From Escherichia coli (lineage in GTDB: Bacteria; Pseudomonadota; Gammaproteobacteria; Enterobacterales; Enterobacteriaceae), in assembly GCF_022846255.1 (NCBI RefSeq), contig NZ_AP025682.1: a stretch of DNA of 64,000 nt; one strand, given 5' to 3'. The notes under the pieces were generated by a model, which was given only the letters and a program-made list of their open reading frames with translations, was not told where the DNA came from and did not search any database. Of the stretch, positions 11,356 to 51,362 are shown one piece after another; the first letter of the stretch is position 1; every line of letters starts with the position of its first letter. The position numbers and the translations under genes are program-made.

Positions 11356-11528
11356 AAAGTTCTTTTGCGCTGCATTGCTGGCGTAAATGTCAGCAATGCA
11401 GCATTTCCTCACGATTCTTCTTTGACGATCGCACTTTTTGCTCGTTATGATGGCGTCGCTAGCCTCAGTAAATCCTTACTCCGGCGGTGCGCAACCCGTG
11501 CGCGTGAACCACTATCTGAATGCTCATC

Positions 11529-31854: not shown

Positions 31855-31939
31855 ATAAAAAAACCTGCTGGTGAGGCAGGTTCTTTTATTTACTATTTTC
31901 AGGCCTAACACCACAGCCTGTGCAACATCGTGTTCCAAC
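31855..31939 (-). ncRNA. Candidate antitoxin small RNA (OrzO-like), about 85 nt
   Basis: Minus-strand sigma70-like promoter (-35 TTGCAA at 31969-31974, 17-nt spacer, -10 TATAAT as complement of 31946-31951); intrinsic terminator (7-bp stem 31862-31868/31876-31882 followed by a U-run on the minus strand); 5' segment complementary to 32086-32105 of the toxin 5' UTR. Confidence 0.5.
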
Positions 31940-49340: not shown

Positions 49341-49367
49341 CCCCCTCATGATGAGGGGGCTTTTTTT
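49341..49367 (+). terminator. Intrinsic terminator after yehA
   Basis: ccccctcat-g-atgaggggg palindrome followed by c and seven T. Confidence 0.7.
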
Positions 49368-49704
49368 AGCGATGATAAAAAATCTCACCGTCGTAGGCTT
49401 TAATGATTTTACCGTCGGTGTCGCTGATCAACACGTACGCGCCACCCATATAGGTCCAGTGCGTCCCGGCATCAGGCGCGGGCAGGTTACGTAACTGCCA
49501 CTGCTTAATGTTGTACTCATCGGTACGGTACATTTCTGGTACGGTGTCACCTGGTTTGAAATGCTTAAAGTCAGCAATGAAACTGCTTAACTCATACTTA
49601 GAAATTCCCGAGGTATTGGTCGAACCCGCGGTGGCTGGTGCGGCCCAGGCGGCACTGGTAACCAGCAAAAGCGCACCCAGCAACATCTTATTTTTAATGG
49701 TCAT
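49366..49704 (-). CDS. rcnB: Periplasmic nickel/cobalt homeostasis protein RcnB (112 aa)
   Basis: ORF track 49366..49884; start at MTIKNKMLLGALLLVTSAAWA (signal peptide). Confidence 0.85.
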   Translation of the reverse strand: MTIKNKMLLGALLLVTSAAWAAPATAGSTNTSGISKYELSSFIADFKHFKPGDTVPEMYRTDEYNIKQWQLRNLPAPDAGTHWTYMGGAYVLISDTDGKIIKAYDGEIFYHR

Positions 49705-49922: not shown

Positions 49923-50747
49923 TTATCGCATTATGCCCATGAAGCCATGTACGCCCATATACACACCAACTAAGCCAATCAACAGACTGGAAAAATAGGG
50001 AGCGCGTTTAGCGAGAGTGTTAAATCCGCTCCAGCGTTTTGCGACCTGCTGAACGCTGATTGCTGCGCCAACGCCTACGGTGACAAGCGTTAACGCCAGG
50101 CCGAGGCTGAAACTGACGACCAGTGTTGCGCCCAGTGTCAGGGCTTTCAACTGAATGCAAATCAACAGCACGGTAATTGCTGCCGGGCAGGGGATAAGGC
50201 CACCGGTTAAGCCAAATAGCAAAATTTGCCAGTTGGTGACCTCTCTACCATCAAAGCGTCGTTTAATGTCATTGGCATGGGCTCGTGCATGGGCATCCTG
50301 ATACTCGCCATGTTCGTGATGGTGATGATGTCCATGGTCGTGGTGATCTTCGTGATCGTGGTGATGATGCTCATGATCATGCTCGTGCATATTCTCCAGC
50401 CAGTTGCGTTCGCCGCGCCAGGTACGCCAGAACATCCAGAACGCGGTGCTAATAATGATCACTGCGGAAATCAACTGGAGCCACGGTTCTGCTGATTGAG
50501 CAGTAAAGCGTTTGCTGATCACCATCCCGCCAAAGGCAATTAACCAGACCACTGCGGTATGCGAAATAGTTGCTGCCAGTCCGAGCATCACCGCCTGTTT
50601 AATGGTGCCTTTGATGGCGATGATAAACGCCGCCATCATCGCTTTTGAGTGCCCCGGTTCCAGGCCATGAAGCGCACCAAGTAAGATGGCGCTGGGGATG
50701 AAGAACCAGGCGTTTCCTTGCTGAAGAAGTGTTGTAAATTCGGTCAT
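49923..50747 (-). CDS. rcnA: Nickel/cobalt efflux protein RcnA (274 aa) with His-rich loop
   Basis: ORF track 49923..50747; His/Asp/Glu-rich loop HEHDHEHHHHDHEDHHDHGHHHHHEHGE. Confidence 0.92.
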   Translation of the reverse strand: MTEFTTLLQQGNAWFFIPSAILLGALHGLEPGHSKAMMAAFIIAIKGTIKQAVMLGLAATISHTAVVWLIAFGGMVISKRFTAQSAEPWLQLISAVIIISTAFWMFWRTWRGERNWLENMHEHDHEHHHHDHEDHHDHGHHHHHEHGEYQDAHARAHANDIKRRFDGREVTNWQILLFGLTGGLIPCPAAITVLLICIQLKALTLGATLVVSFSLGLALTLVTVGVGAAISVQQVAKRWSGFNTLAKRAPYFSSLLIGLVGVYMGVHGFMGIMR

Positions 50748-50784
50748 GATAATAATTCTTAGTATTAATTCGGCAATCTGATTC

Positions 50785-50819
50785 TACTCCCCCCCAGTAC
50801 CTGATACTACCCCCCAGTA
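50785..50819. promoter_or_regulatory. Tandem RcnR operator sites (TACT-G6-N-AGTA type) in the rcnA-rcnR divergent promoter region
   Basis: tactcccccccagta (50785-50799) and tactaccccccagta (50805-50819); reverse complements read TACT-G7-AGTA and TACT-G6-T-AGTA. Confidence 0.7.
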
Positions 50820-50867
50820 GATTAATAGTGCTATGATTTTTCATATTCTTGTTAACCAGGTGTTGCC

Positions 50868-51140
50868 ATGTCTCATACAATCCGTGATAAACAGAAACTG
50901 AAAGCGCGTGCCAGTAAGATTCAGGGCCAGGTCGTGGCGCTCAAGAAAATGCTCGACGAGCCGCACGAATGCGCTGCAGTTTTACAACAGATTGCTGCTA
51001 TCCGTGGCGCGGTGAACGGTCTGATGCGGGAAGTGATTAAAGGTCATCTGACGGAACACATCGTTCACCAGGGGGATGAGCTAAAACGTGAAGAAGATCT
51101 GGATGTCGTTCTGAAGGTGCTGGATTCATATATCAAATAA
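50868..51140 (+). CDS. rcnR: Ni/Co-responsive repressor RcnR (CsoR/RcnR family, 90 aa)
   Basis: ORF track 50868..51140; [21 protein letters not shown]... Confidence 0.92.
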
Positions 51141-51235
51141 TTTATTAACGCGATTGTAAAACTGCCGTTTTTCCTCGTTTACAACGCGTGCGCTGGACAT
51201 TACCATCCTCCTTTGCGATTTATCATCGCAACCAA

Positions 51236-51362
51236 ACGACTCGGGGTGCCCTTCTGCGTGAAGGCTGAGAAATACCCGTATCACCTGATCTGGATAATGC
51301 CAGCGTAGGGAAGTCACGGACCACCAGGTCATTGCTTCTTCACGTTATGGCAGGAGCAAACT
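51236..51362 (+). ncRNA. TPP (THI-box) riboswitch in the thiM leader
   Basis: Conserved THI-element segments ggggtgccc...ctgagaaatacccgtatcacctgatctggataatgccagcgtaggga immediately upstream of the thiM start, with the SD caggagcaaa in the expression platform. Confidence 0.8.

Follow-up and report, generated by a model that had tools for sequence, protein, structure and literature searches.

The two 15-bp repeats that lie between rcnA and rcnR in this stretch of Escherichia coli DNA are almost certainly the tandem operator native to RcnR, the sensor of Ni(II) and Co(II). We make this identification because both repeats match the operator motif exactly, their neighbours are rcnR and rcnA, the sequence does not differ from that of E. 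coli K-12, binding of RcnR to it has been published, and the two sites stand out in a phylogenetic footprint; nothing in the evidence gathered was at odds with it. A preliminary description, made from the letters alone, had proposed that RcnR represses both rcnA and rcnR from these sites until nickel or cobalt is bound, and this proposal is supported by the flanking genes, the K-12 identity and the literature. The operator is already known and characterised in E. coli K-12, and the allele present here is the canonical one. Positions given below are those of the window, the whole 64-kb (64,000-nucleotide) stretch that was analysed.

Operator sites and neighbouring genes

The repeats are located in the 120-bp divergent control region of rcnA and rcnR (50748-50867, no strand assigned), which is bounded by the rcnA start codon, read as CAT at 50745-50747 on the minus strand, and by the rcnR ATG at 50868 on the plus strand. 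Site 1, proximal to rcnA, occupies 50785-50799 on the minus strand (TACTCCCCCCCAGTA; minus-strand reading TACT-GGGGGG-G-AGTA), and site 2, proximal to rcnR, occupies 50805-50819, also on the minus strand (TACTACCCCCCAGTA; minus-strand reading TACT-GGGGGG-T-AGTA). Read on the minus strand the two repeats are therefore TACTGGGGGGGAGTA and TACTGGGGGGTAGTA, both of which conform to TACT-G6-N-AGTA. They are separated by the 5-bp spacer CCTGA (50800-50804, no strand assigned), which sets a 20-bp register of about two helical turns and so would turn the two sites to one helical face. Sites 1 and 2 are 20 bp apart both start-to-start and centre-to-centre, and the preliminary claim of two repeats 20 bp apart, centre to centre, in a 120-bp divergent region was thus borne out by direct reading and by the open reading frame table.

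The fit to the TACT-G6-N-AGTA family that had also been suggested held up in a search of the 64 kb for the pattern TACTGGGGGGNAGTA, which gave 2 exact matches, each on the minus strand, where chance would give none (0.00 matches in dinucleotide-preserving shuffles, n=100). Allowing up to 2 mismatches still recovered just sites 1 and 2 in the 64 kb, with 0.21 matches expected. Independent repeat finding returned the same pair as a direct-repeat family (D3) of 15 nt, 93% identical, at a spacing of 20. A larger imperfect dyad surrounds both sites (50773-50831, no strand assigned); its arms, GCAATCTGATTCTACT at 50773-50788 and AGTAGATTAATAGTGC at 50816-50831, form an inverted repeat (I1) with 16-nt arms and 75% complementarity. 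Just outside the outer half-sites are ATTC...GA(A/T)T flanks, which are conserved symmetrically across species and could be promoter (-10) elements, extended RcnR contacts, or both. RcnR reportedly wraps flanking DNA, going by the title of the primary operator paper.

The gene to the right, rcnR (50868-51140, plus strand), encodes a 90-residue repressor that belongs to the CsoR/RcnR family and senses Ni(II)/Co(II); the protein scored 197 bits against the NCBIfam RcnR equivalog (cut-off 138) and failed the NCBIfam FrmR model at 76.5 bits, below its cut-off of 133. His3, Cys35, His60 and His64 are all present in the protein, and this H-C-H-H motif is what sets RcnR apart from CsoR and FrmR (PMC11672702). 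No structure of RcnR, free or on DNA, was found in the copy of the PDB searched, where the nearest entries are those of FrmR (5LCY, 5LBM) and InrS (5FMN), and the missing structure has been remarked on in the literature as well (PMC11672702). To the left is the regulated target rcnA (49923-50747, minus strand), encoding a 274-residue Ni/Co efflux protein with a His-rich loop that scored 559 bits against the NCBIfam nickel/cobalt efflux transporter family (cut-off 195). Downstream of rcnA lies rcnB (49366-49704, minus strand), for a periplasmic accessory protein; an NCBIfam search with RcnB gave no match, and its identity is taken from the RefSeq annotation of the matching loci. In the literature rcnA and rcnB are treated as a single transcription unit, rcnAB. 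Annotated rcnA genes differ in length among E. coli loci (804, 825 and 864 bp), the variation being presumed to fall in the His-rich loop (around 50250-50400).

The order of genes, yehB-yehA-rcnB-rcnA / rcnR-(TPP riboswitch)-thiM-thiD-yegX, is the same as in K-12. The TPP riboswitch between rcnR and thiM (RF00059, 71 bits, 51232-51328, plus strand) also appears in the RefSeq annotation, and elsewhere in the window Rfam matches above the gathering score were obtained for the OrzO-P antitoxin RNA (99.9 bits; 31857-31932, minus strand) and for the Peptidase-S11 cis-regulatory RNA motif (72.8 bits; 11444-11524, plus strand).

Comparison with E. coli K-12 MG1655 found the intergenic region identical at 120/120 bases and RcnR without a difference, along with the same rcnB-rcnA / rcnR-thiM arrangement. 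With no difference in the operator, the window departs from the K-12 system in RcnA, where 5 residues differ, and we therefore take it to come from another E. coli strain with a canonical control region. A 401-bp query across the region found matches, annotated as rcnA and rcnR, in 5,363 of the 5,426 complete E. coli genomes, and the 120-bp region itself is present in 5,361 of the 5,426. The primary work on the K-12 RcnR operator, including EMSA and reporter assays with and without nickel, is reportedly that of Iwig and Chivers in 2009 (J Mol Biol 393:514) and of Blaha et al. in 2011 (Biochimie 93:434). For the identical sequence, published experiments reportedly cover EMSA or DNase I footprinting of RcnR in its apo and Ni/Co forms, as well as PrcnA and PrcnR reporters, with or without Ni/Co, in the wild type and an rcnR deletion.

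Published RcnR function and the putative flanking promoters

Apo-RcnR binds two TACT-G6-N-AGTA sites in the stretch between the rcnA and rcnR genes (PMC7055735). The rcn operator has been described as a tandem pair of type-1 sites bound with 1:1 stoichiometry, in which the TACT and AGTA elements are contacted in the minor groove, and the G/C tract, being unbroken and A-form in character, plays a part in shape readout (PMC3902906). In the presence of Co(II) or Ni(II), tetrameric RcnR comes off the DNA (PMC7105576); the RcnR sites lie between the two transcription starts, and rcnR and rcnAB are both under the control of RcnR as it responds to Ni(II)/Co(II) (PMC4124493). Synthetic biology has taken the operator up as a part, both for expression systems inducible by cobalt (PMC7105576) and in the "NiCo Buster" strain (PMC4124493).

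Binding, stoichiometry, metal release and dual repression are taken here from the literature on the identical sequence, and on that basis the control region would work as follows. Each 15-bp site is a G6/C6 tract enclosed by the 4-bp inverted repeat TACT/AGTA, and the divergent promoters of rcnA(B) and rcnR would lie to either side of the pair. Seated on the sites, metal-free tetrameric RcnR would block both promoters; on binding Ni(II) or Co(II) it would come off the DNA and derepress both transcription units, so that the efflux pump would be made and RcnR would regulate its own synthesis.

Other type-1 operators of the CsoR/RcnR (DUF156) family, such as that of FrmR, likewise have one unbroken G/C tract with AT-rich inverted-repeat flanks (PMC3902906), and the type-1 repressors, FrmR among them, are all-helical tetramers like RcnR. 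The FrmR operator differs in its half-site sequences, in its formaldehyde effector and in its neighbouring gene, whereas the rcn sites adjoin an rcnR gene with the H-C-H-H motif. A FrmR operator lies upstream of frmRAB, beside a gene for a P-C-H-x FrmR; the product of the gene next to the sites in the window passes the RcnR model instead. The type-2 operators, exemplified by that of Streptomyces lividans CsoR, are alike in being G-tract pseudopalindromes for which a shape or A-form-like readout has been proposed (PMC3902906). They differ in having a pair of short G/C tracts, 2-4 bases apart, and AT-rich repeats set about 11 bp from each other, whereas each rcn site has one tract of 6-7 nt and 7 bp separating TACT and AGTA.

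Conserved -10-like elements abut both operator sites. On the rcnA side we infer that site 1 overlaps a putative -10 hexamer, TAGAAT (50781-50786, minus strand), which shares its TA with the outer AGTA of the site. The sequence GATTCTACT is conserved across species, as is the GATTC directly outside site 1, which yields TAGAAT on the minus strand, and in 48 of 78 species the rcnA ATG stands 36-37 nt away from site 1; the fixed distance and the conserved GATTC together fit an rcnA -10 that RcnR would directly occlude. The -35 of this predicted promoter is poor, which is consistent with the reports that PrcnA is weak and leaky (PMC7105576, PMC4124493). On the other side, a putative extended -10 of the rcnR promoter, TGCTATGAT (50829-50837, plus strand), is found 9 nt after site 2, which would in that case cover the -35 region of the promoter. 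In 53 of the 78 species the motif TGnTAnnnT keeps this offset to within 1 nt, and in 11 species that have an extra partial operator site it is shifted by about 17-18 nt. With these promoters, rcnA transcription would be predicted to begin at about 50772-50775 (minus strand) and that of rcnR at about 50843-50846 (plus strand).

A generic promoter scan offered other candidates, namely TTGCCG-16-TATTAT (minus strand, 50776 to 50749), whose -10 ends 2 nt before the rcnA start codon, and TTAACC-18-TACAAT (plus strand, 50852 to 50881), whose -10 falls inside the rcnR coding sequence. These were rejected because their transcripts would be without the start codon or its ribosome-binding region.

The stretch 50748-50770 (CTAAGAATTATTATCATG in the minus-strand sense) covers the translation-initiation region of rcnA, CTAAGAATnATTnTCATG. 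Many genera conserve this region, its distance from site 1 being fixed at 36-37 nt, and it is partly palindromic, reading GAGAAT-N-ATTCTC in many species. The best matches to the Fur box GATAATGATAATCATTATC scored 14/19 and lie at 50742-50760 and 50748-50766, and a Fur-box score of at least 14 was reached in 5 of the 426 150-nt tiles of the window; no match to GATAATGATAATCATTATC with up to 3 mismatches was found. We set this candidate Fur box at the rcnA start aside as too weak and as confounded by the conserved translation-initiation region.

Conservation across species and on plasmids

Scanning one genome per species for loci with RcnR gave 80 loci, ranging from Escherichia, Citrobacter and Salmonella to Rahnella, Hafnia, Erwinia, Edwardsiella and Morganella, together with one Vibrio; 78 of these, all distinct in sequence, were anchored on site 1 for alignment. 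Upstream of rcnR, strict sites numbered two in 54 of the 80 loci, one in 23 and none in 3, and in several of the one-site and no-site loci the second site is present with a one-base change or another tract length. Where two sites occur, the start-to-start distance is always 20 bp, give or take 1 bp. Across the 78 aligned loci TACT-C7-AGTA carries close to the maximal information content and TACT-A-C6-AGTA a high one, and the spacer and outer flanks carry almost none; the spacer varies in sequence while its length is constant. Conservation confined in this way to the two sites is the pattern expected of a functional operator pair.

The number of operator sites differs among species (loci L082-L086 included). 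Single sites were seen in Erwinia psidii, Edwardsiella anguillarum and one Enterobacter (loci L057, L078 and L079), and the second site of Morganella is degenerate. In a group centred on Kosakonia (loci L055, L058, L059, L062-L064, L069, L070 and L075), site 2 is followed at about 20 bp by a partial third site, ACTCCCCCCCAGTT, with a matching shift of the -10.

Escherichia whittamii Sa2BVA5 (locus L014, approximately 1357-1487) has a clean 150-bp deletion relative to window positions 50704-50870. The deletion lies exactly between 17-nt direct repeats, AACCAGGCGTTTCCTTG and AACCAGGTGTTGCCATG (50704-50720 and 50854-50870 in the window), and takes out the 5' end of rcnA, both promoters and both operators, leaving rcnA coding sequence fused to the start codon of rcnR. 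It was seen in one assembly, and could be real or an assembly artefact.

A second rcnR-rcnA module occurs on large plasmids, where it adjoins pcoS of the pco copper-resistance genes. It comprises the same gene pair and operator as the chromosomal locus and differs in its diverged flanks and its mobility. On the E. coli plasmid p21AR0133A (L006, 2501-2622) the two operator sites are preserved at their 20-bp register and the flanks have diverged, the plasmid intergenic DNA being about 79% identical to the window over just 65% of the region; the rcnA copy of this plasmid is disrupted. The module was found in 412 PLSDB records, mostly from Enterobacter, Salmonella and Klebsiella with Enterobacter foremost, and 388 of these are predicted to be conjugative. 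Passages of the literature on mcr-9 plasmids mention rcnR and rcnA.

Operator alleles in E. coli and alternative readings

In the 5,426 complete E. coli genomes, exact matches of an 80-nt query centred on the operator were counted for each length of the C-tract in site 1 (50789-50795): C7, the allele carried by the window, in 4,396 genomes, C6 in at least 118 and C8 in at least 93. Several O111 strains, the reference genome 11128 being one, and pig ETEC are among the carriers of C6, and a series of O121:H19 strains among those of C8; C6 or C8 was also seen in three other species (loci L016, L054 and L084). One C8 strain, A8, has an rcnA pseudogene too. Both variants alter the distance from TACT to AGTA and therefore break the 7-bp spacing that defines the motif. 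The occurrence of C6 in O111 and of C8 in O121:H19 argues for real, lineage-stable alleles over homopolymer sequencing errors, and on their distribution the variants do look lineage-stable.

In at least 4 E. coli strains, 20 bp comprising site 2 and the CCTGA spacer are duplicated in tandem, which makes three sites in an intergenic region of 139-140 bp. These are EC26 (L088, 101-240), N39, N47 and O111:H8 8E (L089, 101-239), the last of which additionally has C6 in site 1. Among the matches listed for a 100-nt single-site query in E. coli there were just ordinary two-site loci, split in two pieces.

The variable length of the site 1 tract, which recurs in three other species, is what could be said for reading the C/G tracts mainly as slippage-prone promoter spacers that alter the geometry of the rcnA or rcnR promoter and so serve contingency or phase variation independently of any repressor. 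We consider this highly improbable, given that a pure spacer has no need of TACT and AGTA half-sites or of a 20-bp register, and these are conserved as strongly as the tracts; the tracts are moreover short, at 6-7 nt, the variants seem to stay with their lineages (C6 with O111, C8 with O121:H19), unlike the products of rapid switching, and RcnR binding to this sequence is documented in the literature. It is even harder to believe that the repeat pair arose by chance or has a purely structural role, as a G-rich or i-motif-forming element outside regulation. Nothing speaks for it beyond the presence of two G/C runs. Two G-runs are too few for a quadruplex, chance is excluded by the shuffled sequences, by the mismatch search and by sites that are near-invariant across several Enterobacterales families beside flanks that are not conserved, and the published RcnR binding also refutes this reading.

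That the sites are regulatory and yet bound chiefly by a protein other than RcnR, either an unrelated regulator or another member of the CsoR/RcnR family such as the paralogue FrmR, would draw on the similarity of the G/C-tract sites with AT-rich inverted repeats that family members recognise, FrmR being the closest relative of RcnR. The sites nevertheless lie directly upstream of rcnR in 78 species, their sequence is the one reported to be bound by RcnR, and the 64-kb window holds no further motif-like sequence, which leaves such a binder with a negligible probability.

As an RcnR operator, the pair is a textbook metalloregulator operator, and its re-identification changes nothing for this window; it serves as a positive control for reading function from sequence. 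The mildly interesting thread is whether the C6, C8 and three-site alleles of other strains change the response to Ni and Co. We regard it as possible but rather unlikely that these alleles reset the Ni/Co efflux threshold or the ratio of rcnA to rcnR expression in lineages such as O111 and O121 STEC. To our knowledge, natural tuning of metal homeostasis through alleles of the rcn operator has not been described. If it were true, operator alleles would constitute a natural tuning knob for metal homeostasis. The allelic series, comprising C6, C7 and C8 tracts, two versus three sites and the operator deletion, could serve to test how RcnR occupancy depends on the spacing of the half-sites and the number of sites.
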